Assembly (NCBI GenBank): GCA_963972425.1
Contig: CAXAUF010000010.1
Location: forward strand, 3,013-67,012
Length of the DNA: 64,000 nucleotides
Source: an uncultured Flavobacteriaceae bacterium
GTDB lineage: Bacteria > Bacteroidota > Bacteroidia > Flavobacteriales > Flavobacteriaceae
Direction of reading: 5' to 3'
The position numbers were made by a program, and so were the translations under genes. Position 1 is the first letter of the stretch. Every line of letters starts with the position of its first letter. The notes under the pieces are model-generated. The model did not search any database. It was not told where the DNA came from and saw only the letters and a program-made list of their open reading frames with translations. Shown here in pieces: positions 11,012 through 42,112 of this stretch.

Positions 11012-11062
11012 GCTTTATATCATCTTAAATGCAATGGAAACATTTAACAAAGATTCTTCAAC

Positions 11063-11078: not shown

Positions 11079-11098
11079 ATGTTCTGAATGACAAACTA

Positions 11099-13512: not shown

Positions 13513-13740
13513 ATGACCGATTTTTTTTACGCAATTGAAGACTTATTTGTAAATGTTTTATTTGCACCTTTTGATGCTTTAAGAGCTTTAGAGCTTGAAA
13601 ACTGGGCTGCTGCAAATACATTAAACTGGCTTTTTATAGTTGTTGGTTTTGTTGCATTTACCTATTGGATGCTACAACTGAAAAAATACAACGATAATAA
13701 TGAAGAGAATAAAACAATCTCTTCTCACAGTTATTTATAA
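13513..13740 (+). CDS. Small membrane protein of unknown function
   Basis: 75 aa with one clear TM helix (LNWLFIVVGFVAFTYWML). It has a plausible promoter and overlaps the purD stop by 6 nt. Confidence 0.5.
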   Translation: MTDFFYAIEDLFVNVLFAPFDALRALELENWAAANTLNWLFIVVGFVAFTYWMLQLKKYNDNNEENKTISSHSYL

Positions 13741-29333: not shown

Positions 29334-29341
29334 CAAATATA
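29334..29341 (-). promoter_or_regulatory. Candidate -7 box TATATTTG for the T9SS cargo gene
   Basis: Plus-strand caaatata is the reverse complement. It lies 38 nt upstream of the ATG at 29296. Confidence 0.3.
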
Positions 29342-29374: not shown

Positions 29375-30655
29375 TTAAAACACGGTTTTACGAATATAAA
29401 TATAACTTGTAATGTTCCAAAAGGCTAAACTTATTGCTGTTGCAGTAGCAACTCCATTTATTCCATGTTTCTCAACTAATAATATATTTAAAGTTATATT
29501 AATTATTAAGGCAATAAATAGAATGTTTTGAAATACTTTTTGTCTTCCAGTCATTTGTAGAATAGAACCAACAGGTCCGCATACTGCATTGAACAGTTGG
29601 CCAACGCATAAAATGATTAATGCTGTCGAGCCTAACTTAAAATCTTCACCAAAAAACCTTAAAATAATGTCTTTAAATAATATAATTACAATAACGACCA
29701 ACAATGAAATTATTAAATTAACTATTGTAGAGAATTTAACCAACTTTTTAAATAAAGCCATATCATTATCATGGAAAGCAGATGATAGTTTAGGCGCTAA
29801 AATAGAATCAATAGCTTGAAAAGTAAAGCTGGTCACTGCAGCAATCTTTAAAACGACACTATAAACTCCTACAACACTACTCTCTCTATAAATACCTAAA
29901 ATAATAGTATCAGACCATCCCAAAAACACAATCATGGATGCAGAAAAAAGCATAGGTAAAGACTTTAAAACAAAGCCTTTCGATTTATAATTTGTGTGTT
30001 TTGAGAGTGGAAATAAATATTTATAAATATAAATAATCGAAATCAAAAATAACACAAATATACCTAGCGTATGAGCTATAATACTGGTTACTGGCGTTGA
30101 TTCATAAATTAAAATAAATACACCTAAAAAAAGCAATGAAAAAACAAAACGACCACCATTAAACAAAAAAGAATACAACGCATTTTTTTTTAACCCTCTA
30201 AATACTCCTGCATTTAAAAGAATAAATGTAAAGAACATAACACAAGGTGCCGTCCATTTTAAAAATATACTTAATTCTGGATCATTAAAAACATAATTAC
30301 TAATTTCATCTGAAAACACGAAAATTATGGTGGATACAATACATGTTAAGCCTAAAACAAATGGAACTATTTTAAAATAGATGCCTTTTGCATTATCATA
30401 ATTATTTTTAATTGCAAAAATTTTCACAAAATGGGTATCAACTCCCAATCTGCAGAACAAAGCACCAATAATCATAAATGAAAAACTTAAGGCTAAACGA
30501 CCTTGTGTTTCAGCGCCATAAAGTTTTACGGTATAAAAAATAAATACATATCCCGCTAAAAATCCTAGTACTCTAATAAGCAAAGCAACAAGACCCTTTT
30601 TCATTAGCTCAGAAAGGTCTTGGTTACTTATAGCTTTTTGTATTTTTGATATCAA
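29375..30655 (-). CDS. wzx: Wzx-type polysaccharide flippase (MOP superfamily)
   Basis: 426 aa with about 12 TM helices and the typical polysaccharide biosynthesis protein C-terminal region. Confidence 0.8.
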   Translation of the reverse strand: MISKIQKAISNQDLSELMKKGLVALLIRVLGFLAGYVFIFYTVKLYGAETQGRLALSFSFMIIGALFCRLGVDTHFVKIFAIKNNYDNAKGIYFKIVPFVLGLTCIVSTIIFVFSDEISNYVFNDPELSIFLKWTAPCVMFFTFILLNAGVFRGLKKNALYSFLFNGGRFVFSLLFLGVFILIYESTPVTSIIAHTLGIFVLFLISIIYIYKYLFPLSKHTNYKSKGFVLKSLPMLFSASMIVFLGWSDTIILGIYRESSVVGVYSVVLKIAAVTSFTFQAIDSILAPKLSSAFHDNDMALFKKLVKFSTIVNLIISLLVVIVIILFKDIILRFFGEDFKLGSTALIILCVGQLFNAVCGPVGSILQMTGRQKVFQNILFIALIINITLNILLVEKHGINGVATATAISLAFWNITSYIYIRKTVF

Positions 30656-30682: not shown

Positions 30683-32071
30683 TTATAAATTGGTTACCCA
30701 AATAGGTTGACCTATAACACCTTGATATTTATCTTTATTATATAAAAACAATTTAATTTTTTCGAACTCTTTGATTTGTGTATTTATTTGCAGTAAAATT
30801 TCATTCTCTTTTGTTTCCTCTAATAAAACATTATGTAAATCAAAATCATTACCTTTTTGCTTACTTCTATCACTAATTAAATTTTTAAAGCTCTCTTCTG
30901 GATAAATATGTACTCCTAACCTATATTTTTTCAACTCCTTTTTGGAAGTTGAAGAATCAAAAACAATTTTAATATCGAAACCATTTTTTTTCTTAATAAC
31001 ATTATAACTACTAATACTTATTAAATCATTTAGTCTATAAGATTTGGATTTTGCTTGATAAAGTATTTCATTAAATTTACTAATATTCTTTTCTTTAAAA
31101 TCAAGTTTATCTAAATCAAAATTTAATAAAATTTTCTTTTCTATAATATTAGCAAAATGAGTTGATACTTTTTTTGCCCCTCTATTATTTAGGTGAGTAG
31201 GATCCTTAAAATCTTCTTTAGATAAAGATAATTCATCCCAATAATTATTGTAATCTAGAAATGGGATATTAATACTTTTTAGATATTTTGCAATTAAATC
31301 TTGATATAATAAATATTTATCACTAAAATTAATATTAAATGAAGGTGCGCTACAAAAAATTAATGGAATATCAGACTCTTTAAATTTACATATAATATCA
31401 TCTATTATAGCTTTTTCAACATTTGATAAATTCTTTAAATTCTTTTTACTTTTCTTATTATAATTATCTTGCTCTTTCTTGTACTTATTAAATACCTCAT
31501 CATTAAATGTATTATTTGAAGTATAAAACCCATTGTGAAAATATTTTTTATTTATAATATACTCTTTATTAAAGTTAGGCTCTTTCCAAGCATTATGATT
31601 TCTAATGGTTGGAAACATATTAGGAATATTTTTAACCCCATAAATAGAAATAAATCCTTTAACTTTAGACCAAGATAAACCTAAATTATCAAAGGTCTCA
31701 TATTGTAAATTTTTAGGGTTTTCATTAAGAACTGTTTCCAAGCTCATTGAAAAGATGTCTACAATAGCTAGTTTTATATTTTCATTATTTAGTACCATGT
31801 CAATGACAGGTTCTGTAGCTCTTAATCTTTGAGCTGAAGCTCCAAAATTAAAAGTATACAAGCCGGTTATAGAGTCAAACACTTTAGGATTATATGTAGA
31901 ATATGCATGAGAACTCCCAAAAATTGCTATTTCAACATTACCTTTTACTTGTTCATAAACACCATTAGTATATGAACTTTGTGTGTTTTGTTTAAAAAAA
32001 GGATCCGTAAAACTTAAAGTGACTAAAACAAGAATTAAAATGATACTGCTATTTATAATAAATTTTTTCAT
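30683..32071 (-). CDS. Membrane-anchored SGNH/DltD/AlgJ-like partner of the MBOAT (O-acyl transfer to glycan)
   Basis: An N-terminal TM anchor, a block-I-like IAIFGSSHAY and a block-V-like FKDPTHLNNRGAKKVS (D-x-x-H). It lies immediately downstream of the MBOAT. Confidence 0.6.
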   Translation of the reverse strand: MKKFIINSSIILILVLVTLSFTDPFFKQNTQSSYTNGVYEQVKGNVEIAIFGSSHAYSTYNPKVFDSITGLYTFNFGASAQRLRATEPVIDMVLNNENIKLAIVDIFSMSLETVLNENPKNLQYETFDNLGLSWSKVKGFISIYGVKNIPNMFPTIRNHNAWKEPNFNKEYIINKKYFHNGFYTSNNTFNDEVFNKYKKEQDNYNKKSKKNLKNLSNVEKAIIDDIICKFKESDIPLIFCSAPSFNINFSDKYLLYQDLIAKYLKSINIPFLDYNNYWDELSLSKEDFKDPTHLNNRGAKKVSTHFANIIEKKILLNFDLDKLDFKEKNISKFNEILYQAKSKSYRLNDLISISSYNVIKKKNGFDIKIVFDSSTSKKELKKYRLGVHIYPEESFKNLISDRSKQKGNDFDLHNVLLEETKENEILLQINTQIKEFEKIKLFLYNKDKYQGVIGQPIWVTNL

Positions 32072-32074
32072 ATT

Positions 32075-33531
32075 CTAAAATTGAAAATAAATAAATTCTG
32101 AAACACTATTTTCCCCATAAACACCGAAAATTAATATGATAAAAATAATAGTTAGGTAAATACCATATCGAAAAATCACCCCTTGTTTATTTAAAGCAGA
32201 AATTACACGTTGTTTTTTATGATAATAATCAAAACATATTAAACAAACAATCGATAAAATTGCAATTATAATTTCTACTTGCCCTAAACCTAATTCTATA
32301 ATTTTATGCTCATTTTTAGTACTCGTAAAATTACTTATTACATATAACGCATCTTTAAAACTATTTGCCCTAAAAAACACCCAAGCAAAGCAAACAGTAA
32401 CAAATGTAATTGTCATAAAAAAATGTTAGACCCAGCGCTATTAAGATTAAAATTAATAGTTTTCAAAAATCCATGAAGCTTTGGTTTGAACGCTTTTTCA
32501 AGAACAATAATTAATCCGTGAATTGCTCCCCAAATAACAAATGTAATGGCCGCTCCATGCCATAGACCGCTTACAAAGAACACTATAAAAAGATTTGCAT
32601 ACGTTCTATATGTTCCTTTACGGCTTCCACCTAAAGGGATATACACATAATCTCTAAACCATGTTGATAGTGAGATATGCCAACGTCTCCAAAACTCTGT
32701 TATGGATTTTGAAAAATAAGGACTATCAAAATTCTTCATTAAATCAAAGCCCATAGTCCTAGCTAATCCAATTGCAATATCAGAATAACCTGAAAAATCA
32801 CAATAAATTTGGAAAGCAAAAAATACAGTTGCAATAATTAAATCTAAACCACCATGATCCGTTGGATTATTATAAACCTGATTAACTAGAATAGCCAAAC
32901 GGTCTGCAATTACCATTTTTTTAAACAACCCAAAAGCTACAAGTAATAAGCCCGACTTTACTTGCTTGTAATTAAACTTATATGTTTTATAAAATTGTGG
33001 TAATAAATGAGAAGCGCGTTCTATTGGTCCAGCTACAAGTTGAGGGAAAAATGCAACAAACGTAAAAAATGACAACGCATCTTTTGTTGGTTTTAATTGC
33101 TTTCTATAAATATCAATAGTGTAACTTAAGGTTTGAAACGTGTAAAAACTAATACCAACAGGAAGTATAATATTTAAGGTTGATATTTCTAAATTCTCTC
33201 CAAAAAGTTTAAAGGAAGATACAAACGTATCAATGAAAAAGTTCGTATATTTAAAATAGACTAAAAACCCCAAGTTTACGAGTAAACTAACTAACAATAG
33301 TCGTTTTCTTTTCGCTTTTCCTTCTGTTTCATAGAGTTTCTTACCAACGTAGTAATCAACAAAAGAACTAAATGCTATTAAAAATAGAAAACGCCAATCC
33401 CACCAACCATAAAAGAAATAACTAGCAACTAATAAAAATATATTTCTTAATTTCAGGTTATCTGAAACAAGCCAATATAAAACAAAAAATATAGGAAAAA
33501 AGACAGCAAAATCAATAGAGTTAAATAGCAT
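32075..33531 (-). pseudogene. MBOAT-family O-acyltransferase (AlgI/DltB-like) split into two ORFs at a T7 tract
   Basis: ORF 32413-33531 carries the MBOAT core (FWRRWHISLSTWFRDYVYIPLGG, GLWHGA). ORF 32075-32416 carries the usual C-terminal end (FVTVCFAWVFFRANSF). They overlap as ATGA next to an A7 run at 32417-32423 (T7 on the coding strand). One extra T would give a single 486-codon frame (..SNIFFMTITFV..). Confidence 0.75.
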
Positions 33532-33547: not shown

Positions 33548-34801
33548 TTAAACAATCATTCCTGCTGCAACAGTTTCATTGGTGGCATCGTCTACCAATA
33601 TAATACTTCCAGTTGTTCTATTTTCCCTATATGAATCGACCATCAACGGTTTTGTGGTTCTAATTTTCACTTTAGCAATATCGTTCATATTCAGTTCAGG
33701 ATTGTCCGAAATCCGATCTAAGGTATTTATATCATATTTATAAATAACCTCTTTTATCATGGCTGTTTGTTCGTTAGATGTGTGTCTAATAGAATATTTA
33801 GAACGTGGTTTTGCTGAATCATTATTTAACCAACATAACATAACTTCAATATCCTGGGATGGTTCAGGTTTGTTGTTAGAACGTACAATCATATCACCAC
33901 GACTAATGTCAATATCATCTTCCAATGTAATGGAAACAGACATGGAAGCAAAGGCTTCTTCTAATTCTTTATCGAGTGTATCAATAGATTTAATTTTAGA
34001 CGTAAATCCAGATGGTAAAACCGTAATATCATCTCCTTTTCTAAAAATTCCACTTGCTACGCGACCTGCATATCCTCTATAATCTATAAACCCTTCGCTT
34101 TGAGGTCTTAAAACGGTTTGAACTGGAAAACGAGCATCTACTTTATTAATATCGCTACTAATGTGCATGGTTTCTAATGTATGCAACATTGGTGCGCCTT
34201 GATACCAGGACATATTTTCAGATTTATTTACTACATTATCACCTAATAAAGCAGACATAGGAATAAAACGAACATCGGTAACCAATAATTTAGATGCAAT
34301 TTCTTCAAATTCTGAAACAATAGTATTGTAAACATCTTCTGAAAAATCTACTAGATCCATTTTATTAACACAAACAATAATATGTGGTATTTGTAATAAA
34401 GAAGCAATAAATGCATGTCTTTTAGTTTGCTCAATTACACCATGTCTAGCATCAATTAATATAGTGGCAACATTAGCAGTAGATGCACCTGTTACCATAT
34501 TCCGAGTATATTGAATATGACCTGGTGTATCTGCAATTATAAATTTACGCTTTGGAGTTGTGAAATATCTGTAGGCAACATCAATAGTAATACCTTGTTC
34601 ACGTTCATCACGTAAACCATCCGTAAAAAGCGCTAAATCTACGCCTTCATGCCCTTTCTTTCTGCTAGTATTTTCAATAGCCTTTAATTGGTCTTCAAAA
34701 ATAGATTTTGAATCGTATAATAAACGACCAATTAACGTGCTTTTCCCATCATCAACGCTACCTGCTGTAGTAAAACGTAATAATTGATTGTTATCTATCA
34801 T
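33548..34801 (-). CDS. cysN: Sulfate adenylyltransferase subunit 1 (GTPase)
   Basis: G1 GSVDDGKSTLIGRL, G3 DTPGH and G4 NKMD. The track start at 34867 adds 22 low-complexity residues across a hairpin. The ATG at 34801 (MIDNNQLLRFTTAGSVDDGKST) is the more credible start. Confidence 0.9.
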   Translation of the reverse strand: MIDNNQLLRFTTAGSVDDGKSTLIGRLLYDSKSIFEDQLKAIENTSRKKGHEGVDLALFTDGLRDEREQGITIDVAYRYFTTPKRKFIIADTPGHIQYTRNMVTGASTANVATILIDARHGVIEQTKRHAFIASLLQIPHIIVCVNKMDLVDFSEDVYNTIVSEFEEIASKLLVTDVRFIPMSALLGDNVVNKSENMSWYQGAPMLHTLETMHISSDINKVDARFPVQTVLRPQSEGFIDYRGYAGRVASGIFRKGDDITVLPSGFTSKIKSIDTLDKELEEAFASMSVSITLEDDIDISRGDMIVRSNNKPEPSQDIEVMLCWLNNDSAKPRSKYSIRHTSNEQTAMIKEVIYKYDINTLDRISDNPELNMNDIAKVKIRTTKPLMVDSYRENRTTGSIILVDDATNETVAAGMIV

Positions 34802-34826
34802 GTTTTGTATTTGAATTTTTAAAATG

Positions 34827-34847
34827 ACCTTTAGCTTCGCTAAAGGT
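34827..34847 (-). other. 9-bp-stem hairpin in the cysD-cysN spacer
   Basis: acctttagc-ttc-gctaaaggt, a perfect inverted repeat read directly. No clear U-run follows on the minus strand. Confidence 0.6.
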
Positions 34848-34876
34848 TGAATTTTGAAATTTAACAATTAAAATTT

Positions 34877-35782
34877 TTAAAAATAACCTTGTCGCTTTCT
34901 ATCTTCCATAGCGGACTCCGAACGTTTATCATCACTTCTGTTTCCGCGTTCTGTGTTACGCATTCCTGCAACTTCTATAGCAATTTTTTCTAGAGTATCT
35001 GCATCCGATTCATCACCACCTGTAATAGTAATATCACCCAAAGTTCTAAATCGAATTTTTTTAGTTACCACCTCTTCATGAGTTTCCAGAATTAAAAATT
35101 CGGAATTTGGTATCCATGTACCATCACGCTTTACAACTTCGCGCTCATGTGCAAAATATAAAGATGGAATAGCAATATTTTCTCTTTTTATATAATTCCA
35201 AACATCCATTTCAGTCCAGTTACTAATAGGAAAAGCTCTAAAATGTTCGCCTTGAAAATGCTTACCGTTAAATATATTCCATAATTCAGGACGTTGATTT
35301 TTAGGGTCCCATTGTCCAAAATCGTCTCTGTGTGAAAAGAAACGTTCTTTGGCACGTGCTTTCTCTTCATCACGACGTCCGCCACCAATGGCGCAATCTA
35401 TTTTATTAGATTCTATAGCATCTAGAAGCGTTGTAATCTGTAGCGCATTTCTTGTGGCATTTTTACCTTTTTCTTCAGTTACACGACCATCATCAATAGA
35501 TTCTTGAACGGATCCCACTATAAGATCAACTCCTAATTCCTCTATTATATCATCTCTAAATTGAATGGTTTCCGGAAAATTATGACCGGTATCCACGTGC
35601 ATTAATGGGAATGGGATTTTAGCAGGATAAAAAGCTTTTTTAGCCAAATGGGTTATCAAAATGGAATCTTTACCACCTGAAAACATGATTACTGGATTTT
35701 CAAATTGCGCCCAAACTTCGCGTAAAATAAAAATGGCCTCACTTTCTAACTCGTCTAAATAATTTAAATAATATTTACTCAT
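34877..35782 (-). CDS. cysD: Sulfate adenylyltransferase subunit 2
   Basis: PP-loop MFSGGKDS and typical CysD length and C-terminus (MEDRKRQGYF). Confidence 0.93.
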   Translation of the reverse strand: MSKYYLNYLDELESEAIFILREVWAQFENPVIMFSGGKDSILITHLAKKAFYPAKIPFPLMHVDTGHNFPETIQFRDDIIEELGVDLIVGSVQESIDDGRVTEEKGKNATRNALQITTLLDAIESNKIDCAIGGGRRDEEKARAKERFFSHRDDFGQWDPKNQRPELWNIFNGKHFQGEHFRAFPISNWTEMDVWNYIKRENIAIPSLYFAHEREVVKRDGTWIPNSEFLILETHEEVVTKKIRFRTLGDITITGGDESDADTLEKIAIEVAGMRNTERGNRSDDKRSESAMEDRKRQGYF

Positions 35783-36303
35783 TATTTATTGCTTTTATCA
35801 TCTAATAAAATATCTAATACTTTAAAACCTCCTAAATTACCAGAGCCTTTCCAATCTTTTCGTTTATAAATATATGCTGAAATACTATCAAAATATTTTA
35901 CCTCGTCCACTACTTTGGTTGCAATAATATATTTGCTTCCATCAATTTCTGATAAAACAGGCTCGAATGTCATTAACAAAGGCTTTTTTAAATTTCTATC
36001 AAAGCCACGAATACCTAAACTATAAGCTTCAACCGTTTCATTTGTTGTACTGTCATTTAATTTAAACACAAACCCTATAAGACTATCATTTGTTTTTTGA
36101 ATCCCAAATTTTTCAACTTTATAATTATCTAAAAATCGCTCATTTACGTCTCTATAGTCTAAAAGTGATTGTTCAAAAGACACTGCTTCCGGTTTCGTCG
36201 AGTCTGAAACTGTTTCATTAACATCAGCATTCTCATTATTCTTATCCGATTTACAAGCTATAAAAGTAATAGCTATTAATAAAATAAAAATTCCTTTTTT
36301 CAT
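35782..36303 (-). CDS. Small lipoprotein of unknown function embedded in the PAPS operon
   Basis: 173 aa with a lipobox (LLIAITFIAC). Its stop overlaps the cysD start (TAATG). It starts 3 nt after the cysC stop. Confidence 0.6.
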   Translation of the reverse strand: MKKGIFILLIAITFIACKSDKNNENADVNETVSDSTKPEAVSFEQSLLDYRDVNERFLDNYKVEKFGIQKTNDSLIGFVFKLNDSTTNETVEAYSLGIRGFDRNLKKPLLMTFEPVLSEIDGSKYIIATKVVDEVKYFDSISAYIYKRKDWKGSGNLGGFKVLDILLDDKSNK

Positions 36304-36306
36304 AAT

Positions 36307-36894
36307 TTATAATTTTTGGTTTATAAAATCTACGATGCGTTTTGATGCGTTTTCAACGCTTTCGTTTTCGGTTAATATTTCAATATCCGGATTTTCAGGC
36401 GCTTCATAAGGTGCTGAAATTCCTGTCATGTTTTTTATTTCGCCTGCTCGTGCTTTTTTGTAAAGTCCTTTTACATCGCGACGCTCACATTCTTCTATAC
36501 TCGTATTAACGTAAACTTCAACAAAGTTAACATCTTTAACGATACTTTTTATATTCTCACGGTCTTTTTTATAGGGCGATACAAAAGCCGCAAGCACCAC
36601 CAAACCAGCTTCTACCATTAAGTTAGCAGTTTCGGCAATTCTACGAATATTTTCTGTTCTATCTTCTGGTGAAAACGTTAAATCGTTGTTGATACCTTTT
36701 CTAATGTTATCGCCATCTAAAGTATAGGTTTTTATACCTTGCTTAAATAATTTTTGTTCTACCACATTAGCTATAGTAGATTTTCCAGAACCTGAAAGTC
36801 CTGTAAACCATATTAAAAAAGAGTTATGCCCATTTAAACTCCTTCTATCATTTACTGATATTTGATACTCGTGTGAAATGATGTTTTCTTTCAT
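36307..36894 (-). CDS. cysC: Adenylylsulfate (APS) kinase
   Basis: P-loop FTGLSGSGKSTIA and LDGDNIR, typical of CysC. Confidence 0.93.
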   Translation of the reverse strand: MKENIISHEYQISVNDRRSLNGHNSFLIWFTGLSGSGKSTIANVVEQKLFKQGIKTYTLDGDNIRKGINNDLTFSPEDRTENIRRIAETANLMVEAGLVVLAAFVSPYKKDRENIKSIVKDVNFVEVYVNTSIEECERRDVKGLYKKARAGEIKNMTGISAPYEAPENPDIEILTENESVENASKRIVDFINQKL

Positions 36895-37325
36895 TGTTCT
36901 ATATTATTACGTTTTGGTAATCCGTAATTAATTCTATACCAAGCGCGTTCATGAAAGTAATACAATAACATTTTAGTAATAACTTCGGCAAATCCTATCT
37001 TTAATGCAGCTAATGGATCGCCCGAAATTATCCATGCTAACGTCATGGTATCTAAAGTACCAACCAATCGCCAAGTAACTGTTTTTGCTAAATGCCGCTT
37101 TCTACTCTCAAGTGTTTCACCATCTTTTGTTAAGTTTATTTTATACCAAACACGTTCGTGCATATAATATAAAATAGTTTTAGTAGTAACTTCTGCAAGC
37201 CCAATTTTTAAACCTGCATACGGATCACCTGTAACAATCCACGATAATATAATGGTATCTATAGTTCCTATAAACCGCCAGGTAATTGTTTTAGCAATAT
37301 GTCTTTTATAAGATAAGTCTCCCAT
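36891..37325 (-). CDS. DUF2061-type membrane protein, internal tandem duplication
   Basis: 144 aa made of two homologous halves: KRHIAKTITWRFIGTIDTIILSWIVTGDPYAGLKIGLAEVTTKTILYYMHERVWYKI and KRHLAKTVTWRLVGTLDTMTLAWIISGDPLAALKIGFAEVITKMLLYYFHERAWYRI. It has an ATGA overlap with cysC. Confidence 0.6.
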   Translation of the reverse strand: MGDLSYKRHIAKTITWRFIGTIDTIILSWIVTGDPYAGLKIGLAEVTTKTILYYMHERVWYKINLTKDGETLESRKRHLAKTVTWRLVGTLDTMTLAWIISGDPLAALKIGFAEVITKMLLYYFHERAWYRINYGLPKRNNIEQ

Positions 37326-38134
37326 TACTTACTTACTAAAAAATAACTATTCAGTAAATTCTCTTTATTGTAAGCTAACGGTTTATTCGTTTCTTTTGAA
37401 ATAACTTGTAGTCCAACGGCATTACATATAGCATGTCCTGCAGCCGTATCCCATTCCATAGTTGGTGCATAACGCGGATACACATCAGCTTCACCTTCAG
37501 CTACTAAACAAAATTTTAAGGAGCTACCTTTAGAAACAATCTCAACCTCTTTTCCTTCTGCTATTAAGCAATCTACAAAATCCAAAGTATCCTGATTCAT
37601 GTGCGATCGGCTTCCAACCACTTGAACCAAATTCGCATTAGCCTTTTTTGCCTGAATTGGTTTTGAAATTTGTAAAACCTTATCAACTGTAATGTCATGA
37701 GATTCCAAATCTGCCTTAAATGCTTCATTTGTATCTACATTTGCAAAATATAAGGTCTTGGTTGCAGGCACATAAATAACACCTAAAACAGGGTTTCCGT
37801 TTTTAACCAACGCAATATTAACCGTAAATTCTCCATTGCGTTTAATAAACTCCTTGGTGCCATCAACAGGATCTACAATCCAACAGGTTGCCCAATTTTT
37901 CCTTTCAGAATAATCGGTTTGCTTATTCTCTTCAGAAATGATAGGTATTTGAGTTGGTATTAAAAATGTATTAATAATATCATTCGCTTTTTTATCTGCC
38001 TCTGTTAAAGGTGATTTATCATCTTTAATTTCAACAGAAAAAACAGTATCATAAACATCCATAATAACTTTTCCAGCTTGAAGTGATGCCTCTATTGCTA
38101 TTCTTAATTCACTCACTATCATTTTCTTTATCAA
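37325..38134 (-). CDS. cysQ: 3'(2'),5'-bisphosphate nucleotidase
   Basis: Inositol-monophosphatase-fold motifs SEE, WIVDPVDGTKEF and WDTAAG. Confidence 0.88.
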   Translation of the reverse strand: MIKKMIVSELRIAIEASLQAGKVIMDVYDTVFSVEIKDDKSPLTEADKKANDIINTFLIPTQIPIISEENKQTDYSERKNWATCWIVDPVDGTKEFIKRNGEFTVNIALVKNGNPVLGVIYVPATKTLYFANVDTNEAFKADLESHDITVDKVLQISKPIQAKKANANLVQVVGSRSHMNQDTLDFVDCLIAEGKEVEIVSKGSSLKFCLVAEGEADVYPRYAPTMEWDTAAGHAICNAVGLQVISKETNKPLAYNKENLLNSYFLVSK

Positions 38135-38153
38135 ATTAGTTTACAAAACTAAA

Positions 38154-38161
38154 CAATTTAA
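38154..38161 (-). promoter_or_regulatory. Candidate -7 box TAGTTTTG for the cysQ...wzx operon
   Basis: Plus-strand caaaacta is the reverse complement. It lies 20 nt upstream of the cysQ ATG (38134). Confidence 0.35.
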
Positions 38162-38209
38162 ATAATTGAAGTGTTTTACCCATAATTAATTTAAATATAT
38201 ACTATAAAT

Positions 38210-39088
38210 TTGCTAAAGACTAAAACAGTTTTTTTGAAAAAGAAAAATATCTTATACTTATTGGGTTCAGGTAGAAGTGGCACCACCCTTTTAGCAACCA
38301 TTCTGAATAGTACCAATGATATATCTACAACAGGAGAATTACATCAATTTTATACGTATTTACAAAACAAATCTTCCTGTTCATGTGGTGCGCTTCTTAA
38401 CGAATGTAAATTTTGGAGACTGGTGGTAAAAGATATGGATTTAAGTAAAGATGAAATCCAAAATTTCCAAAAAAGACAGAACAACGAAGAAGGGCATCGG
38501 TATATTCCATCCATTATTCTGGGCAGAAAAGCTAGTGAAGATTATATCCTATCACAAGAAAACCTCTTTAATTCTATCGAAAATCATACCACTAAAAAAT
38601 GGGTTTTAGACTCATCAAAGTATATTGGACGATTTTTATTATTAAAACAAATGCCAAGCCTAAAGTTAAAAGGTATTTATGTGATAAGAGATGTTAGAGG
38701 CGTTATAAACTCATTTAACAAACAGGTCCAAACGCCCAGAAAACCGATTAGTACTATTTTATATTATATATTAACTAATTGCTTTGGACAATTGGTTTGT
38801 TGGATGAATAAAGATGTCATAAAGGTAAAATATGAAGATTTTATTGATAATCCTCATGAACATGTACAACGAATTTACAATATTCTTTTAGATCAGAACC
38901 ATAATGATGATGCTCTTAATGATGTATTTCAAATGCCTCATATTATTGGAGGCAATAGATTAAAAAGCAGTAAAACCATTAAAATTAAAAAAGATACGGC
39001 TTGGAAAACTACTATTTCCAGACCAAAACAAATACTGTATTATTTGTTATGTTTGCCTTTTATGCTGCTAAACCGCTATAAACTATAA
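38210..39088 (+). CDS. PAPS-dependent sulfotransferase
   Basis: 5'-phosphosulfate-binding loop LLGSGRSGTTLLATIL and a later IRDVRGVINS (3'-PB-like). There is no ATG before the P-loop. Candidate starts are TTG at 38210 or TTG at 38234. Confidence 0.8.
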   Translation: MLKTKTVFLKKKNILYLLGSGRSGTTLLATILNSTNDISTTGELHQFYTYLQNKSSCSCGALLNECKFWRLVVKDMDLSKDEIQNFQKRQNNEEGHRYIPSIILGRKASEDYILSQENLFNSIENHTTKKWVLDSSKYIGRFLLLKQMPSLKLKGIYVIRDVRGVINSFNKQVQTPRKPISTILYYILTNCFGQLVCWMNKDVIKVKYEDFIDNPHEHVQRIYNILLDQNHNDDALNDVFQMPHIIGGNRLKSSKTIKIKKDTAWKTTISRPKQILYYLLCLPFMLLNRYKL

Positions 39089-39091
39089 TTT

Positions 39092-40078
39092 ATGAAAATT
39101 TATATTACCCTTGATTATGAATTATTTTTTGGCTCGAAAAGTGGTGGTATTGATGATTGTATTATTAACCCAACAAACGAACTTCTTAAAATCGCGGATC
39201 CTCATCAAGTAAAGATTGTGTTTTTTGTCGATGTTGGTTATATTGATAAATTGAATGAGTTTAAGGGAAAATACCCAGAATTACAGCAAGACTATAAAAA
39301 AATTACCTCTCAAATAAAATCACTTTCAGAAAATGGCCATGGTATAGAATTGCATATTCATCCACATTGGGAAAATACCATTTATGATGGCGAAAAATGG
39401 ATTTTTAATACAAGCCAATACAAGCTTCAAGATTTTTCAAAAAAAGAAGCCTATGCCATTGTTACCAAATACACTGCTCTTTTAAATAGTATTTCTGGTA
39501 AAAAAGCGATAGCCTACAGAGCTGGTGGTTGGAGCGCTCAACCATTTTCATATATTTCACAGGCTTTAAAAGATTCTGGAATAGAAATAGATAGTACCAC
39601 GTACCCAAAAGGTTTTCACCAATCCAAGCATCAGGAATACGATTTTAGAAACGTAGCGCAATACAAAACTACATATAGATTTGAAAACGATTTAACGGTT
39701 GAAGAACCAAACGGTCACTTTACCGAATACCCAATTAGTTCTTACAGATTAAGCCCAGTTTTCTTTTGGCGTTTTGCTTTAGAAAAGATTAAGAAAGATA
39801 AAAAACATGTATCCTTTGGTAATGGCTCAGCTATTTCAAAGCCTAAAATAGAAGTGATAAAATTAATGACACGTTTTTCAAATAGTGTGGTATCTATTGA
39901 TGGTTACAAGGCGTCTTATATAGCAAAAGCGTTTAAAAAGTATATAAAAAATACAGATAATAAAGGACATTTCGTGCTCATTGGACACCCGAAAGCCTTT
40001 ACGCCTTATTCGTTACAAGAGACTAGAAAATTTATTGAAAACGTGCACAAAAACCATACGTTCAGTATATTTAAATAA
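39092..40078 (+). CDS. Polysaccharide deacetylase-like (CE4/NodB-fold-like) protein
   Basis: The N-terminal ITLDYELFFG and HGIELHIHPHWEN metal-binding-like motifs resemble deacetylase-superfamily proteins. The assignment is tentative. Confidence 0.45.
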   Translation: MKIYITLDYELFFGSKSGGIDDCIINPTNELLKIADPHQVKIVFFVDVGYIDKLNEFKGKYPELQQDYKKITSQIKSLSENGHGIELHIHPHWENTIYDGEKWIFNTSQYKLQDFSKKEAYAIVTKYTALLNSISGKKAIAYRAGGWSAQPFSYISQALKDSGIEIDSTTYPKGFHQSKHQEYDFRNVAQYKTTYRFENDLTVEEPNGHFTEYPISSYRLSPVFFWRFALEKIKKDKKHVSFGNGSAISKPKIEVIKLMTRFSNSVVSIDGYKASYIAKAFKKYIKNTDNKGHFVLIGHPKAFTPYSLQETRKFIENVHKNHTFSIFK

Positions 40079-40086: not shown

Positions 40087-40827
40087 CTATTTTTTTAGGC
40101 GTTCTTTAAAAACCAAGTATAAGAATTTAGAATTACCAACTAAATACCGTTTCCACATACGTTGCGGTTCTTGGGCAAATCTGTAAAACCATTCTAATCC
40201 GTTGTTTTGCATCCATAAAGGTGCTCTTTTTACTAAACCAGAAACTACGTCAAAACTACCACCAACTCCCATGGTGAAACTAACTTTGGATAAGTGTTCT
40301 TTATTTTGATATAAGAAATTTTCTTTTTTAGGTGAACTGATAGCAACAAATAATAATTGGGCTTCACTAGCTTCAATATCTTTCGCTATTTCTGGTTCTT
40401 CTTCTTTTGAAAAATAACCGTTTCTATAACCTGCAATCAGGTCTTTACTATATTTTTCTGAATAATGATTGACAACTTTTGAAACAATCTCTTCTTTAGC
40501 ACCTAAAAAATATACTTTATAGTTTTTTTTATGTGCTAATTCAATCAGATTCTCCATTAAATCTATTCCAGCAACACGCTCTTTTAAAGGTTTCCCTAAA
40601 ACTTTAGATGCCCATACTACAGCCATACCATCTGCATTTATAACATCGCAATTATTAACGCTTTCACGCAGTTCTGAATCTGTTTGCAAGGCTACAATCT
40701 TACCTGCATTTACCACTACGTGCTGCAATCTATTTCCAGATGAAATAGATTCATTAATCAGCATAACGGTTTCTTGCATGGTTAAATTATCAACCTGTGT
40801 ATTCAGAAACTTAACTCTTGAGGACAT
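40087..40827 (-). CDS. WecB/TagA/CpsF-family glycosyltransferase (GT26, ManNAc(A) transferase type)
   Basis: 246 aa with VINADGMAVVWA, KVYFLGA and GVGGSFD motifs typical of GT26. Confidence 0.85.
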   Translation of the reverse strand: MSSRVKFLNTQVDNLTMQETVMLINESISSGNRLQHVVVNAGKIVALQTDSELRESVNNCDVINADGMAVVWASKVLGKPLKERVAGIDLMENLIELAHKKNYKVYFLGAKEEIVSKVVNHYSEKYSKDLIAGYRNGYFSKEEEPEIAKDIEASEAQLLFVAISSPKKENFLYQNKEHLSKVSFTMGVGGSFDVVSGLVKRAPLWMQNNGLEWFYRFAQEPQRMWKRYLVGNSKFLYLVFKERLKK

Positions 40828-40840: not shown

Positions 40841-40874
40841 TAAAAAAGGATTATTCAAAATAAGAATAATCCTT
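40841..40874 (-). terminator. Rho-independent terminator after wecC
   Basis: An 11-bp stem aaggattattc / gaataatcctt with a 7-nt loop. On the minus strand it is followed by TTTTTTA. It begins 24 nt after the wecC stop. Confidence 0.7.
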
Positions 40875-40897: not shown

Positions 40898-42112
40898 TTA
40901 AGCCATAGCATTACAAAAATCTAAAACCACTTTATTACTGCCTATTTTTAACGTTTTAAATTCTTTATGCGCTACTAAAAATACAACAATATCAGCTTTT
41001 TCAGCTGCTTCCTTATAATCCGTAATTTTAAATACTTTATGTTCTTCAATATTTGGTTCTACAATAAAATACTCTTCATTGTTAGCGTTTTGAAGTACTT
41101 TTTGCGCTATGTATTTTGCAGGTGATTCTCTTAAATCATCAATATTGGGTTTAAAAGCTAATCCCATTAAGGCAATACTCGGTTTGCGTCCTTCTTTTAA
41201 TTCGAATGCTAATTTAGCGGTTTGTACTTTTTCAGCACACCAAAACGATTTGTAATTATTAATCTCTCTTGCCTTTCCTATAATTTGAGATTCCATAGGA
41301 TATTCAGCGACTATAAAATAAGGATCTACAGCAATGCAATGACCACCAACACCACAACCCGGTTGTAAAATATTAACCCTTGGGTGTTTATTAGCTAACG
41401 CTATAAGTTCCCAAACATTAATATCAGCTTTATCACAAATTAGCGATAACTCATTGGCAAAAGCAATTTGAACGTCACGAGAAGAATTTTCAACCAATTT
41501 ACACATTTCAGCCGTTCGTGCGTTTGTTCTGTGTAAATCGCCTTCTATAAAATCGCGATAAAAATCAATGGCTTTATCTGTCGATTTTTCATCAACACCA
41601 CCAATAACACGATCATTATGAACTAATTCATACATGACATTTCCTGGTAGAACGCGTTCTGGACAATAGGCAATATTAATTTTACCTTCTAATTCTGGTC
41701 TTTCAGAATAGATAAGCTGCATCATCTTCTCAGTTGTTCCTACTGGTGACGTAGATTCAATGATATATAAATCGTCTTCTTTTAACAAAGGTAAAACAGC
41801 TTTAGTTGCTGCTTCTACGAACGAAATATCTGGTTCGTTTTTAGCCTTAAATGGCGTAGGAACAACAATTAAATAGGTGTTTGCTTCAACAGGAGTCGTG
41901 GCTGCTTTTAAATAGCCATTTCCTACGGCTTCTGCTACTGCAGTATCTAATTCTGGTTCTACAATATGTATTTTTCCCGCATTGATAGTTTCTACCACTT
42001 TCGGGTTTATATCTACACCGTGAACGTATGTTTTATTTTTTGCTATTAATGCTGCTGTTGGTAGGCCTATATAACCCAAACCAATCATGACCACACTGGG
42101 AGTTTTACTCAT
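40898..42112 (-). CDS. wecC: UDP-N-acetyl-D-mannosamine dehydrogenase
   Basis: VMIGLGYIGLPTAA Rossmann fold, catalytic-Cys region GCGVGGHCIAVDP, and a position directly after wecB. Confidence 0.85.
   Translation of the reverse strand: MSKTPSVVMIGLGYIGLPTAALIAKNKTYVHGVDINPKVVETINAGKIHIVEPELDTAVAEAVGNGYLKAATTPVEANTYLIVVPTPFKAKNEPDISFVEAATKAVLPLLKEDDLYIIESTSPVGTTEKMMQLIYSERPELEGKINIAYCPERVLPGNVMYELVHNDRVIGGVDEKSTDKAIDFYRDFIEGDLHRTNARTAEMCKLVENSSRDVQIAFANELSLICDKADINVWELIALANKHPRVNILQPGCGVGGHCIAVDPYFIVAEYPMESQIIGKAREINNYKSFWCAEKVQTAKLAFELKEGRKPSIALMGLAFKPNIDDLRESPAKYIAQKVLQNANNEEYFIVEPNIEEHKVFKITDYKEAAEKADIVVFLVAHKEFKTLKIGSNKVVLDFCNAMA

Follow-up and report, generated by a model that had tools for sequence, protein, structure and literature searches.

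We consider it probable that an operon for the supply and recycling of PAPS lies inside the main Wzx/Wzy surface polysaccharide locus of a member of the Flavobacteriaceae close to Bizionia, and that it serves the sulfation of a glycan. If so, this marine flavobacterium would make a sulfated surface glycan. The evidence comes from a contiguous stretch of 64,000 nucleotides (the window), and lies in the identity and order of the genes, in the conservation of both the module and an adjoining sulfotransferase-deacetylase-WecG cassette, and in the predicted folds of the proteins.

Table 1. Features of the polysaccharide locus, with positions numbered from the start of the window.
Feature	Position	Strand	Support
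Whole Wzx/Wzy-type polysaccharide locus	15005-47687		profile matches; between purD and the DUF6909 gene
purD, locus flank	13735-15006		
Wzx-type flippase, end of the co-directional run	29375-30655	minus	PF01943 E 6.1e-13, PF01554 E 1.2e-15
Putative SGNH-like MBOAT partner, 462 aa, membrane-anchored	30683-32071	minus	motifs and position beside MBOAT
MBOAT (AlgI/DltB-like membrane O-acyltransferase)	32075-33531	minus	PF03062 E 9.9e-32
cysN, ATP sulfurylase GTPase subunit	33548-34801	minus	TIGR02034 E 2.9e-167
cysD, ATP sulfurylase small subunit	34877-35782	minus	NF003587 E 7.6e-132
Lipoprotein, 173 aa	35782-36303	minus	signal peptide, lipobox FIAC; no family match in Pfam or NCBIfam
cysC, APS kinase (APS to PAPS)	36307-36894	minus	PF01583 E 4.9e-68, NF003013 E 9e-85
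Tandem DUF2061 protein, 144 aa	36891-37325	minus	PF09834 E 8.9e-44, two stretches
cysQ, 3'(2'),5'-bisphosphate nucleotidase (PAP to AMP)	37325-38122	minus	TIGR01331 E 8.5e-78, PF00459 E 2.3e-45
Divergent intergenic region, cysQ/sulfotransferase	38123-38233		one TAnnTTTG -7 box per direction
PAPS-dependent sulfotransferase, 284 aa, predicted cytoplasmic	38234-39088	plus	PF13469 E 1.2e-10
CE4/NodB-fold deacetylase-like protein, 328 aa, predicted cytoplasmic	39092-40078	plus	fold, CE4 residues
WecG/TagA/CpsF-family glycosyltransferase, convergent with the CE4 gene	40087-40827	minus	PF03808 E 7.1e-63
wecC-like UDP-ManNAc dehydrogenase	40898-42112	minus	PF03721/PF00984/PF03720
wecB UDP-GlcNAc 2-epimerase	42115-43239	minus	PF02350 E 4e-122
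DUF6909 gene, locus flank	47693-49387		

Profile HMMs reproduce the minus-strand order cysQ, DUF2061, cysC, lipoprotein, cysD, cysN given in an earlier note on this DNA. The run is headed by cysQ, whose ATG at 38122 gives a product of 265 aa, the same as that called in public assemblies; the longest ORF starts with a TTG at 38134. The assignment of cysN stands and the protein carries no fusion to CysC, but the start previously placed at 34867 is an upstream TTG. We prefer the ATG at 34801, giving 417 aa and matching the length of the Bizionia protein.

From the ORF coordinates, there are overlaps of 1 nt between cysQ and the DUF2061 gene, 4 nt between the latter and cysC, and 1 nt between the lipoprotein gene and cysD, with a gap of 3 nt between cysC and the lipoprotein gene. 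The description of overlaps of 1-4 nt or very short gaps is therefore correct for most junctions; cysD and cysN are 9 nt apart using the TTG start, but 75 nt apart using the ATG. Beyond cysN the spacings are 16 nt to the MBOAT gene, 3 nt from there to the gene of the 462-aa protein, and 27 nt to wzx. The intergenic gaps from cysQ through wzx contain no terminator-like hairpin on the minus strand, in agreement with the run-on into MBOAT, partner and Wzx proposed before. The spacing and the absence of predicted terminators suggest that cysQ to wzx would be co-transcribed. Transcription does diverge between cysQ and the sulfotransferase gene, but the distance of 75 bp applies only to the longest ORFs (that of the sulfotransferase begins at 38210), and is 111 bp for the starts adopted by gene callers and seen in homologues. 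This region has -7 boxes of Bacteroidota type at 38205-38212 (plus strand) and 38144-38151 (minus strand). Across the whole window the TAnnTTTG motif occurs at chance frequency (115 observed, 115.4 expected), and the boxes are thus weak evidence for promoters.

The surrounding locus contains rmlBACD, glycosyltransferases, three Wzy-like genes, an initiating sugar transferase and a UDP-glucose dehydrogenase. It is flanked on one side by purD, DUF6427 and DUF4254 genes, and on the other by genes for DUF6909, GH3 and an M23 peptidase; the locus has the same flanking genes in Bizionia, Olleya, Lacinutrix, Oceanihabitans and Flagellimonas. WecB and the WecC-like protein probably supply UDP-ManNAcA, because the combination of WecB, WecC and WecG is that familiar from enterobacterial common antigen. 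The claim that the window has no gene for a PAPS/APS reductase or sulfite reductase is upheld, with cysH, cysI, cysJ and sir all absent among the 56 ORFs scanned with Pfam, from a total of 61 of at least 100 aa. The other five comprise three lying inside or antisense to called genes, one of 114 aa, and the 113-aa C-terminal piece of MBOAT. The lone PAPS_reduct match is CysD itself.

These components suggest a pathway. CysD and CysN would convert sulfate to APS, which CysC would phosphorylate to PAPS, and the divergently encoded sulfotransferase would transfer the sulfuryl group in the cytoplasm to a glycan precursor, with CysQ clearing the inhibitory by-product PAP. The likeliest acceptor would be a repeat unit linked to undecaprenyl diphosphate, or else a sugar precursor, of a ManNAcA-containing glycan made with WecB, WecC and WecG; we infer both the acceptor and the N or O position of the sulfate. 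The CE4-fold enzyme would work on the same intermediate, most likely removing an N-acetyl group. There is a precedent in ArnD, a CE4 enzyme acting on a lipid-linked amino sugar at the cytoplasmic face. Wzx would then flip the unit for polymerization by a Wzy protein. Outside the cytoplasm, the MBOAT may O-acylate it together with its partner and possibly also the 173-aa lipoprotein, provided that the frameshifted gene still yields an active enzyme.

The sulfotransferase does have the clear PAPS-binding loop ascribed to it. In addition to the PF13469 match, the 5'-PSB loop GSGRSGTT (GxGRSGTT) is invariant in 15 homologues, as is an RDVRGVxxS motif. In all, 267 homologues were found, mainly in marine Flavobacteriaceae, and the AlphaFold2 model has a mean pLDDT of 87.8. 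The deacetylase-like nature of the following gene, which begins 3 nt past the sulfotransferase stop codon, is likewise confirmed by its modeled fold (mean pLDDT 92.7). The match to PF01522 scores 21.2 bits, under the cut-off of 23.1, and the best PDB matches of the model are HP0310 PgdA (3qbu), a deacetylase from M. smegmatis (3rxz) and Salmonella ArnD (8t0j), with E values from 5e-7 to 6e-7. Residues D8, E10, H88, H92, R143 and H299 are invariant, compatible with the CE4 motifs.

This pair is of greater interest than the PAPS module, and was underplayed in the earlier note. In all 38 evaluable loci the sulfotransferase gene is followed on its own strand, at a distance of no more than 2.1 kb, by a CE4 gene (directly adjacent in 28). 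These loci come from organisms in several phyla, including Fodinibius, Nitrosomonas, Thiodiazotropha, Chitinophagales and Kordiimonadaceae, and a WecG-type transferase is usually next. How the two enzymes cooperate can be read in more than one way. One possible reading would couple N-deacetylation to N-sulfation in the manner of animal NDST. Opposed to this, and itself a variant of the glycan sulfation that we favor, the sulfotransferase might O-sulfate a hydroxyl group while the CE4 protein de-N-acetylates another residue, or plays a part tied to WecG, either non-catalytic or of deformylase type, so that the pairing reflects a shared substrate and not sequential chemistry. We give this slightly less than an even chance. 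Bacterial sulfated polysaccharides characterized so far are O-sulfated, on rhamnose in the example of Vibrio KMM 8419 (PMC11641403), and the NDST1 N-sulfotransferase domain comes only at rank 34 among the fold matches of the sulfotransferase. Moreover, the CE4-WecG pair persists in one locus where the sulfotransferase is 5 kb away (L131) and in another where it belongs to a different family (L130). Independent action is harder to reconcile with the frequent translational coupling of the sulfotransferase and CE4 genes, seen in the 3-nt gap here and in overlaps of 1 nt and 4 nt in L132, L133 and L012. In Galbibacter pacificus, an amine N-acyltransferase accompanied by a dedicated ACP and KASIII takes the slot of the sulfotransferase, a replacement compatible with a free amine as the shared intermediate.

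At least eight genera (Bizionia, Olleya, Lacinutrix, Oceanihabitans, Formosa, Winogradskyella, Muricauda/Flagellimonas and Moheibacter) carry cysQ-DUF2061-cysC-cysD-cysN in the same conserved-flank locus. Among Flavobacteriaceae such an arrangement is not unusual, and the earlier note overstated this point. The DUF2061 protein has 3216 database matches (E <= 0.001), and among the best 120 (73-94% identity) every named source is from the Flavobacteriaceae or related flavobacterial genera. This far wider spread than that of the sulfotransferase could indicate that the cell has no other ATP sulfurylase or APS kinase and that the module feeds both cysteine synthesis and sulfotransfer, with a PAPS reductase encoded elsewhere and the location in a polysaccharide locus being a habit of the lineage and not dedication. 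CysQ, which had been taken as a sign of sulfotransfer, does not discriminate between the two, because classical PAPS-based assimilation, as in E. coli, also needs it. We nevertheless regard such a general role as unlikely. The tie between PAPS and glycan loci put forward earlier is supported. Glycan genes are sometimes interleaved in the module: in Olleya, MBOAT and its partner separate cysD from cysN, and in Lacinutrix LPG_synthase_TM and GT2 genes separate cysC from cysD. In 13 related modules the neighbors include nucleotide-sugar enzymes, Wzx flippases and sulfotransferases, and the 25 most frequent neighbor families contain no reductase. Among 80 metagenomic relatives of CysD, cysC lies directly upstream in 26 of the 27 with at least 72% identity; at 80% identity or more, DUF2061 is present in 17 of 19 and cysQ in 16 of 19. 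A context like cysDN-cysH (with an ECGLH motif), beside a possible ABC transporter, appears only at 68% identity. Kordia, also of the Flavobacteriaceae, separates an assimilatory cysND-cysH-sir lacking cysC from an extra cysND set with cysC elsewhere (PMC7477175). The module would, we infer, be an additional, dedicated copy and not the sole route of sulfate activation. Physical linkage of sulfotransferase and cys genes is frequent but not obligatory, since cys genes lie within 10 kb in only 11 of 39 genome loci selected by the sulfotransferase.

The best PDB matches of the sulfotransferase model are the CurM sulfotransferase (4gbm, E 4.2e-7), the olefin synthase sulfotransferase (4gox) and TPST1/2; these closest solved folds have a polyketide intermediate or peptides as substrates, and not sugars. 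Together with a PSB loop GRSGTT that resembles that of TPST in sequence matches, and a gene order (cysQ, membrane protein, cysC, cysD, cysN, sulfotransferase) similar to that of the PAPS cluster BT_0411-BT_0416 beside a cholesterol sulfotransferase in Bacteroides thetaiotaomicron (PMC9417993), they could suggest sulfation of a lipid, metabolite or peptide, yet this is very improbable given the constant CE4 partner, accompanied by a WecG glycosyltransferase, across phyla, the invariable position of the sulfotransferase within polysaccharide clusters (Wzx, Wzy, glycosyltransferases), and the absence from the window of nearby lipid or peptide biosynthesis genes.

Two genes of the run had been called unknown. 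One of them encodes the DUF2061 protein, which consists of two repeats of about 60 aa, alignable with each other over 60 residues, with a peak Kyte-Doolittle hydropathy of 1.26 (19-residue window), and no related solved structure was found. It is a conserved, translationally coupled component of the module, with its gene flanked by cysQ and cysC in Bizionia, Formosa, Winogradskyella, Muricauda and all six further contexts inspected; in L134 a 147-aa gene intervenes before cysC. The PAPS cluster of Bacteroides has a putative sulfate importer in this slot, and a role in sulfate uptake would be a guess only. The lipoprotein can be tied to MBOAT partners and not to PAPS metabolism. A set of 1.84 billion proteins contains only 51 cluster representatives related to it, and two of the matches are the C-terminal ends of proteins of 460 and 505 aa (E 2.4e-23 and 1.4e-16) bearing GSSHS and DxxHLN motifs. 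The cysC-cysD slot holds unannotated genes of similar size in Bizionia and Winogradskyella (tblastn 61% and 38%), Oceanihabitans and L134; the lipoprotein gene is missing from Formosa, Olleya, Muricauda and Moheibacter. By sequence, the lipoprotein appears to be a stand-alone homologue of the C-terminal domain of SGNH-like MBOAT-partner proteins, and so probably is an accessory of a glycan O-acylation/acetylation system.

The MBOAT family assignment stands, but a -1 frameshift in a T7 stretch (32417-32423) breaks the gene into ORFs of 372 and 113 aa. Against the intact 485-aa Bizionia protein, residues 1-370 align in one frame and 372-485 in another, and T8 would repair the frame. A T9SS-tailed gene nearby is likewise broken, and the two may therefore reflect partial decay of the locus or assembly errors. 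The identification of an SGNH partner depends upon GSSH/DxxH motifs and position: the 462-aa protein has no match in Pfam, NCBIfam or PDB sequences, but has a hydrophobic N-terminal anchor and GSSHAY and DPTHLN motifs, and in Bizionia and Olleya the MBOAT gene is followed by one of similar size. The C-terminal region of the 462-aa protein shows weak similarity to the lipoprotein (E 0.067).

A literature search found no chemical evidence of sulfate on any Flavobacteriaceae glycan. The principle of a sulfated-glycan operon is not novel, having been published for the capsules of Vibrio KMM 8419 and Cobetia marina KMM 1449, where PAPS genes and sulfotransferases in a polysaccharide cluster accompany a sulfated polysaccharide of demonstrated chemistry (PMC11641403, PMC11766843). 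The present locus points to a system not studied in Flavobacteriaceae, but of a kind already described in other marine bacteria.

Profile searches reproduce the gene order read from the sequence in the earlier note, in which cysQ, a DUF2061 gene, cysC, a small lipoprotein gene, cysD and cysN form a module for the supply and recycling of PAPS on the minus strand, with a sulfotransferase gene (the protein is called ST below) and a deacetylase-like gene (CE4, after its CE4/NodB-type fold) transcribed divergently from it. Profile HMMs find cysD, cysN and cysC all present together in the window. From cysQ to wzx, neighboring genes overlap by 1-4 nt or stand 3-27 nt apart; the one exception is a gap of 75 nt ahead of cysN if its ATG start is taken. 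The earlier note saw no obvious terminator through to the flippase gene wzx, and we too find no terminator-like hairpin on the minus strand in the intergenic gaps from cysQ to wzx.

Positions of the PAPS module, its neighbors and the locus that holds it, with the evidence for each assignment
Feature	Position	Strand	Evidence or remark
cysQ	37325-38122	minus	TIGR01331, E 8.5e-78
Tandem DUF2061 protein	36891-37325	minus	PF09834, E 8.9e-44
cysC	36307-36894	minus	PF01583, E 4.9e-68
173-aa lipoprotein	35782-36303	minus	without family
cysD	34877-35782	minus	NF003587, E 7.6e-132
cysN	33548-34801	minus	TIGR02034, E 2.9e-167
MBOAT	32075-33531	minus	MBOAT domain, E 9.9e-32
462-aa membrane-anchored protein	30683-32071	minus	GSSHAY and DPTHLN motifs, position
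Wzx flippase	29375-30655	minus	profile search
Sulfotransfer_3 protein (ST)	38234-39088	plus, divergent from cysQ	PF13469
328-aa deacetylase-like protein (CE4)	39092-40078	plus	start 3 nt past the ST stop
Wzx/Wzy polysaccharide locus	15005-47687		about 33 kb; holds the PAPS module

The divergent gap measures 75 bp, as first read, when the longest ORFs are taken; the starts chosen by gene callers widen it to 111 bp. A sigma-70 promoter scan is uninformative for Bacteroidota, and the Bacteroidota -7 motif is as frequent across the window as chance predicts, so that two boxes in the divergent gap (38123-38233) are suggestive at most. The sole strong hairpin in the intergenic gaps of the scanned 28.7-40.9 kb region has a perfect 11-bp stem (40846-40874); it sits in the 70 bp that separate wecG from the wecC-like gene and is terminator-like on both strands.

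The window has a G+C content of about 32%. Its public matches are a marine metagenome-assembled Flavobacteriaceae contig, DIAL01000089.1 (GCA_002414705.1), and Tara-derived contigs, and the nearest named genus is Bizionia, with an ST identity of 81%. The ST gene lies inside a locus with Wzx, Wzy, glycosyltransferases, and rml and wec genes. This locus contains rmlBACD, wecB, a wecC-like dehydrogenase gene, a WecG/TagA-family glycosyltransferase gene (WecG below), UDP-glucose dehydrogenase, GT4 glycosyltransferases, three Wzy-like genes and an initiating sugar transferase. Its borders are formed by purD, DUF6427 and DUF4254 at one end, with DUF6909, GH3 and an M23 peptidase at the opposite end, and an equivalent variable locus with identical boundary genes is found in Bizionia, Olleya, Lacinutrix, Oceanihabitans and Flagellimonas. 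The three Wzy/O-antigen-ligase-like membrane proteins (380, 409 and 407 aa) are encoded consecutively on the minus strand at 21253-25357, with a hexapeptide acyltransferase gene between the first two; two or three Wzy_C genes occur also in several related loci from other genomes, for example L131 and L025. Beside DUF6909, a 355-aa protein (46620-47687) has a sub-threshold match to the chain-length determinant Wzz (E 0.0033), and the position of its gene is kept in all related loci. At the purD end, a 467-aa protein (15005-16408) has no family match at all.

The reading of the module as a sulfuryl donor supply for glycan decoration, rather than for cysteine synthesis, depends in part on what is missing. 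As the earlier note held, the window carries no PAPS/APS reductase or sulfite reductase: there is no homologue of cysH, sir or cysIJ among the 56 ORFs scanned with Pfam, out of 61 that reach 100 aa. Of the other five, three lie inside or antisense to called genes, one is of 114 aa, and one is the 113-aa C-terminal piece of the MBOAT. The linkage of cysH and sulfite reductase to cysDN that marks an assimilatory sulfate reduction operon is thus not seen among the scanned ORFs.

The order cysQ-DUF2061-cysC-(x)-cysD-cysN stands in the same polysaccharide locus in Bizionia, Formosa, Winogradskyella, Muricauda/Flagellimonas, Mesonia, Urechidicola, Olleya, Lacinutrix, Oceanihabitans, the weeksellacean Moheibacter and another metagenome-assembled genome. 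Olleya has an MBOAT gene with its partner inside the module, between cysD and cysN, and Lacinutrix has genes for an LPG_synthase_TM protein and a GT2 between cysC and cysD; the glycan and cys genes are thus physically interleaved. In a sample of 80 metagenomic CysD relatives, cysC lies directly upstream of cysD for 26 of the 27 with at least 72% identity, and at an identity of at least 80% the module includes DUF2061 in 17 of 19 cases and cysQ in 16 of 19. A cysDN pair followed by a CysH-like ORF (with an ECGLH motif) is seen only at 68% identity, in locus L102, beside a possible ABC transporter called from gene sizes alone. The neighbors of 13 close modules are for the most part nucleotide-sugar enzymes (16), Wzx-type flippases (6) and sulfotransferases (4), and no reductase family is found among their 25 most frequent neighbor families. 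Within the same family, Kordia has an assimilatory cysND-cysH-sir cluster that lacks cysC, and an extra cysND and cysC set elsewhere (PMC7477175). Taking position, CysD lineage and the Kordia literature together, the link of the module to glycan synthesis is well supported by context, and that it is a dedicated set serving a sulfated glycan is a prediction. The cysC-linked lineage of CysD and the separate sets of Kordia lend indirect support to the cys genes being an extra copy beside an assimilatory set. A literature search on sulfated glycans, or on PAPS genes with sulfotransferases, in Flavobacteriaceae returned no paper, and no chemical structure of a polysaccharide from this organism or its relatives came up; coverage was incomplete and this is not proof of absence.

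The earlier note counted two genes within the module as having no known function, and these now part company. In each of the modules that we looked at closely, the DUF2061 gene stands between cysQ and cysC, and it is truly a conserved extra component. Its protein is 73-94% identical among the best 120 listed homologues, which come from many genera, and consists of a tandem of two repeats of about 60 aa, rich in conserved charged residues. On the Kyte-Doolittle scale its hydropathy over 19 residues peaks at 1.26, short of the customary value of about 1.6, so the Pfam label of membrane protein is not secure. A PDB search found no solved relative, and the literature found on DUF2061 consists of incidental mentions, none of them functional. 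The conserved position gives a first functional context, that of PAPS metabolism, to a family with no known role. In the BT_0411-BT_0416 cluster of Bacteroides thetaiotaomicron the gene in the equivalent slot has been proposed to be a sulfate importer (PMC9417993), and the PAPS genes of Cobetia are accompanied by a sulfate permease (PMC11766843). By analogy of position one might guess that DUF2061 has a part in sulfate uptake. The Bacteroides gene is a proposed importer; DUF2061 is a tandem protein of weak hydrophobicity. In one related locus (L134) an additional 147-aa gene (3338-3781) separates DUF2061 from cysC. The same locus has an IS1595-family transposase (10484-11131) inside the adjacent sugar-nucleotide genes, which suggests that such loci are actively rearranged.

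The second of these genes, encoding the 173-aa lipoprotein, has 51 cluster representatives in 1.84 billion proteins. Two of its matches are the C-terminal ends of proteins of 460 and 505 aa (E 2.4e-23 and 1.4e-16) that bear the GSSHS and DxxHLN motifs of MBOAT partners, and there is a marginal match (E 0.067) to the C-terminal part of the 462-aa protein of the window. Formosa, Olleya, Muricauda and Moheibacter have the module, alike in all other respects, without this gene. A function in PAPS metabolism was considered and rejected, both because so many otherwise identical modules do without the lipoprotein and because of its homology to the C-terminal domain of MBOAT partners. We conclude from these similarities that it is probably an accessory of the O-acylation machinery that stands by chance between cysC and cysD. 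AlgX carries a carbohydrate-binding module as an additional domain, and by likeness to it the lipoprotein may bind glycan.

The O-acylation genes themselves were first read as an MBOAT and its SGNH partner. The MBOAT domain is there, but the gene is split by a frameshift into ORFs of 372 and 113 aa, and the intact 485-aa Bizionia protein aligns across the two frames. The shift (-1) lies within a T7 run at 32417-32423 (region 32413-32425), where T8 would restore the 485-aa frame. The 113-aa ORF has an ATG start that overlaps the stop codon of the upstream MBOAT ORF (ATGA). The split may stem from an assembly error, or the gene may be a pseudogene, code for a naturally split enzyme, or undergo slipped-strand phase variation that affects O-acylation. 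The gene next downstream of wzx (26790-29296, minus strand) is frameshifted too. It encodes a protein like PQQ-dependent sugar dehydrogenases, with a GSDH domain, Ig/fn3 domains and a T9SS C-terminal sorting domain, in the middle of the polysaccharide locus; a 71-aa N-terminal ORF (29081-29296) holds the signal peptide, the remainder follows in another frame from about 29090, and a TAnnTTTG box lies upstream at 29334-29341. The two broken genes reflect either homopolymer assembly errors or a partly decaying locus. The assignment of the SGNH partner rests on its GSSHAY and DPTHLN motifs and its position, since the 462-aa protein has no Pfam, NCBIfam or PDB match and a PDB search found no solved relative. 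The arrangement resembles those of AlgI/AlgJ/AlgX and DltB/DltD in that next after the MBOAT comes a protein anchored in the membrane that bears GSSH and DxxH motifs, and the partner has an extra C-terminal domain as AlgX does. It differs from the AlgI and DltB systems in that the partner belongs to no Pfam family, the MBOAT is frameshifted, and the extra domain occurs also as a stand-alone lipoprotein encoded between cysC and cysD.

The ST family numbers 267 matches, mostly from marine Flavobacteriaceae, and its genomic context is exclusively polysaccharide. In 15 sequences the 5'-phosphosulfate-binding (PSB) loop GxGRSGTT and the 3'-phosphate-binding motif RDVRGVxxS are invariant, as is E35, and the cluster of H37, C49, C51 and C58 is conserved. 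These last residues lie in a segment just past the PSB loop (residues 37-58, HQF...CSCG...C.FW) that looks, from its sequence, like a small metal-binding or disulfide insertion; we know of no characterized sulfotransferase with such an insertion. Searched against the PDB by sequence, ST gives weak matches, to the CurM sulfotransferase (E 7.4e-5) and to the PSB loop of TPST. The AlphaFold2 model (pLDDT 87.8) has 23 PDB matches with E at most 0.001, nearly all of them sulfotransferases, and the best are the CurM and olefin synthase sulfotransferases and TPST1/2, which act on non-carbohydrates. NDST1 (8ccy), one of the animal enzymes (NDST) that combine N-deacetylase and N-sulfotransferase activities for heparan sulfate, is ranked 34 (E 2.3e-3). 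As far as the model goes, the fold confirms the enzyme class and does not settle the acceptor.

The CE4 protein falls below the Pfam gathering threshold for Polysacc_deac_1 (21.2 bits against a cut-off of 23.1), although some homologues have a precomputed PF01522 match, and comparison of the family with the PDB by sequence gives nothing meaningful. The predicted structure (pLDDT 92.7) is a distorted (beta/alpha) barrel of CE4/NodB type. Its best fold matches are Helicobacter pylori PgdA (HP0310), the mycobacterial deacetylase 3rxz, Salmonella ArnD and Bc1974, with E from 5e-7 to 7e-6 and target-normalized TM scores of 0.52-0.62 for the top matches. The invariant residues D8 and E10 (TLDYE), H88 and H92 (HIHPH), R143 and H299 fit the metal-binding and catalytic CE4 motifs (1, 2, 3 and 5) by their position in the sequence, with motif 1 being TLDYE and not TFDD. 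Neither ST nor CE4 has a signal peptide on reading of the sequences, and both are therefore predicted to be cytoplasmic, where PAPS is made.

The pairing of ST and CE4 is constant. A scan of a genome collection with the ST family gave 39 loci, and in all 38 that could be evaluated a CE4 gene lies downstream of ST on the same strand within 2.1 kb, directly adjacent in 28. A WecG-family gene usually comes next after CE4. The ST and CE4 genes often overlap by 1-4 nt, and no fusion protein of the two is found among 240 listed homologues. The pair is found together in Fodinibius (Balneolales), Nitrosomonas, Thiodiazotropha, Chitinophagales and Kordiimonadaceae; being kept across phyla, it moves as a unit.

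Starting instead from the CE4 family, we sampled seven contexts (L128-L134). The same ST family stands directly upstream of CE4 in four of them (L128, L132, L133 and L134), and in L131 a sulfotransferase gene lies 5 kb upstream. In L130 (3697-7763) a sulfotransferase of another family is followed by a D-glucuronyl C5-epimerase homologue (PF06662, E 4.5e-44) and then CE4. L014 (390-4464) has a window-type ST, a C5-epimerase (PF06662, E 2.7e-42), CE4 and WecG in that order. These two Flavobacteriaceae loci thus hold the enzyme types of heparan sulfate maturation. The seventh context, L129 from Galbibacter pacificus (JAPMUA010000001.1, 7079-9990), has no sulfotransferase upstream of CE4-WecG. In its place are an ORF the size of an acyl carrier protein (ACP; 91 aa, with no Pfam match on record), a KASIII-like gene and a gene of the aminoglycoside-N-acetyltransferase family, which looks like a swap of N-sulfation for N-acylation. 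Downstream in this locus are a formyltransferase and a second deacetylase (Polysacc_deac_1/DUF3473).

A gene for a heparinase II/III-like protein lies 0-2 kb upstream of ST in eight loci. Such proteins, of 620-633 aa, are found in L012 (6787-8688), L015, L018, L023, L026, L033, L038, L132 and L133, Fodinibius included. Encoded among biosynthetic genes, a lyase-fold protein of this kind may serve as a uronate epimerase. A tblastn search of the window, with the L130 C5-epimerase and the L012 heparinase II/III-like protein as queries, found no match.

We propose that CysDN and CysC would make PAPS and CysQ would clear the PAP released, with ST transferring sulfate to a building block of a glycan that contains ManNAcA, either its lipid-linked repeat unit or a precursor. 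CE4 would act on the same intermediate as ST, probably as a de-N-acetylase, for which ArnD offers a precedent at the cytoplasmic face. Wzx and Wzy would then export and polymerize the unit, and the MBOAT system would O-acylate it. What we observe are the identities of the genes, their order and conservation, and the predicted folds; the acceptor, the order of the reactions and co-transcription are what we infer. Overall we consider it probable that the module supplies PAPS for a sulfated, lipid-linked glycan repeat unit.

A more specific possibility is that ST and CE4 form a split prokaryotic counterpart of NDST, CE4 taking the N-acetyl group off an amino sugar of the lipid-linked repeat unit and ST then N-sulfating the freed amine with PAPS from the adjacent operon. 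In Galbibacter the amine N-acyltransferase, accompanied by an ACP and a KASIII, is in this one locus what would be expected if a free amine were the shared intermediate, and this swap and the translational coupling of ST with CE4 favor such an intermediate. The C5-epimerase of L014 and L130, or the heparinase II/III-like protein, would extend the parallel with heparan sulfate maturation. Caution comes from the lack of specific similarity to NDST and from the persistence of CE4-WecG with no adjacent sulfotransferase. In all characterized bacterial cases that we know of the sulfate is on oxygen. We regard N-sulfation by this pair as unlikely, though if it is true marine Flavobacteriaceae would make a glycosaminoglycan-like, N-sulfated acidic surface polysaccharide.

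The principle of a PAPS operon within a polysaccharide cluster is already published, and the arrangement is common in Flavobacteriaceae, so the earlier note overstated its rarity for this family; what is added here is the family-wide conservation, the context for DUF2061 and the ST-CE4(-C5-epimerase) cassette. If our reading of the module is correct, sulfated surface glycans would be a common genome-encoded trait of marine Flavobacteriaceae and not a rarity, and the order cysQ-DUF2061-cysC-cysDN provides a simple genomic marker for producers. Flavobacteriaceae are major degraders of algal sulfated polysaccharides, and sulfated glycans of their own would bear on surface charge, interactions with phage and grazers, and marine organic sulfur. 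ST and CE4 would be two small soluble bacterial enzymes for glycan sulfation, joined in some relatives by a C5-epimerase. A review records no known bacterial glycosaminoglycan with both sulfation and C5-epimerization (PMC3068255), and the cassette is a testable lead to glycosaminoglycan-like modification of the kind listed there as unknown. Expression of active NDST in bacteria is described as a bottleneck for bioengineered heparin (PMC13353177), for which reason a natural bacterial N-deacetylase and N-sulfotransferase pair would be valuable.

Like NDST, the cassette would bring together a deacetylase and a PAPS-dependent sulfotransferase on a glycan of amino sugar and uronic acid, and the deacetylase of NDST is reportedly of a similar metal-dependent type. 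The modification set of heparan sulfate is mirrored further in L014 and L130, where a C5-epimerase homologue lies between sulfotransferase and CE4. In contrast, NDST is a single bifunctional Golgi enzyme, whereas here there are two separate small proteins predicted to be cytoplasmic, neither of which matches the Pfam NDST deacetylase family, and NDST1 is absent from the top 50 fold matches of the CE4 model. Salmonella ArnD (8t0j) is likewise a CE4-fold protein that lacks a signal peptide; its lipid-linked amino sugar substrate is modified on the cytoplasmic side, ahead of flipping. ArnD is a deformylase of undecaprenyl-phosphate-Ara4FN and the third-best fold match of CE4 (E 6e-7, TM 0.49/0.58). 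Identity is however 13%, and ArnD functions in lipid A modification with no sulfotransferase partner.

Within the same phylum, BT_0411-BT_0416 of B. thetaiotaomicron is a PAPS cluster beside a cholesterol sulfotransferase and is regarded as a dedicated PAPS supply (PMC9417993). Compared by its description, the order is near-identical, with a cysQ-like gene, a membrane protein, cysC, cysD, cysN and an adjacent sulfotransferase. That cluster serves a steroid acceptor and lies outside any glycan locus, whereas the module of the window is within one; and its sulfotransferase gene is downstream, where ours is divergent and paired with CE4 and WecG.

The nearest published systems are the capsule clusters of Vibrio sp. 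KMM 8419 and Cobetia marina KMM 1449, in which cysD, cysN, cysC and sulfotransferase genes lie together with rml genes; the Cobetia set includes cysQ, as here. The products of both strains are chemically proven to be sulfated, and the combination of PAPS and sulfotransferase genes is considered by the authors a hallmark of sulfated polysaccharide synthesis (PMC11641403, PMC11766843). The cys genes of the Vibrio cluster are explicitly a second copy (PMC11641403). Those are Gammaproteobacteria with capsules exported by an ABC transporter (Kps), whereas ours is a Wzx/Wzy-dependent system of Bacteroidota, with a putative sulfated product. In Cobetia cysN and cysC are fused and a sulfate permease is present, while here cysN and cysC are separate and DUF2061 stands between cysQ and cysC. 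The conserved ST-CE4 pair is unreported in either cluster. Thus the locus differs from those published by its phylum, by Wzx/Wzy export, by DUF2061 and by the conserved pairing of ST with CE4.
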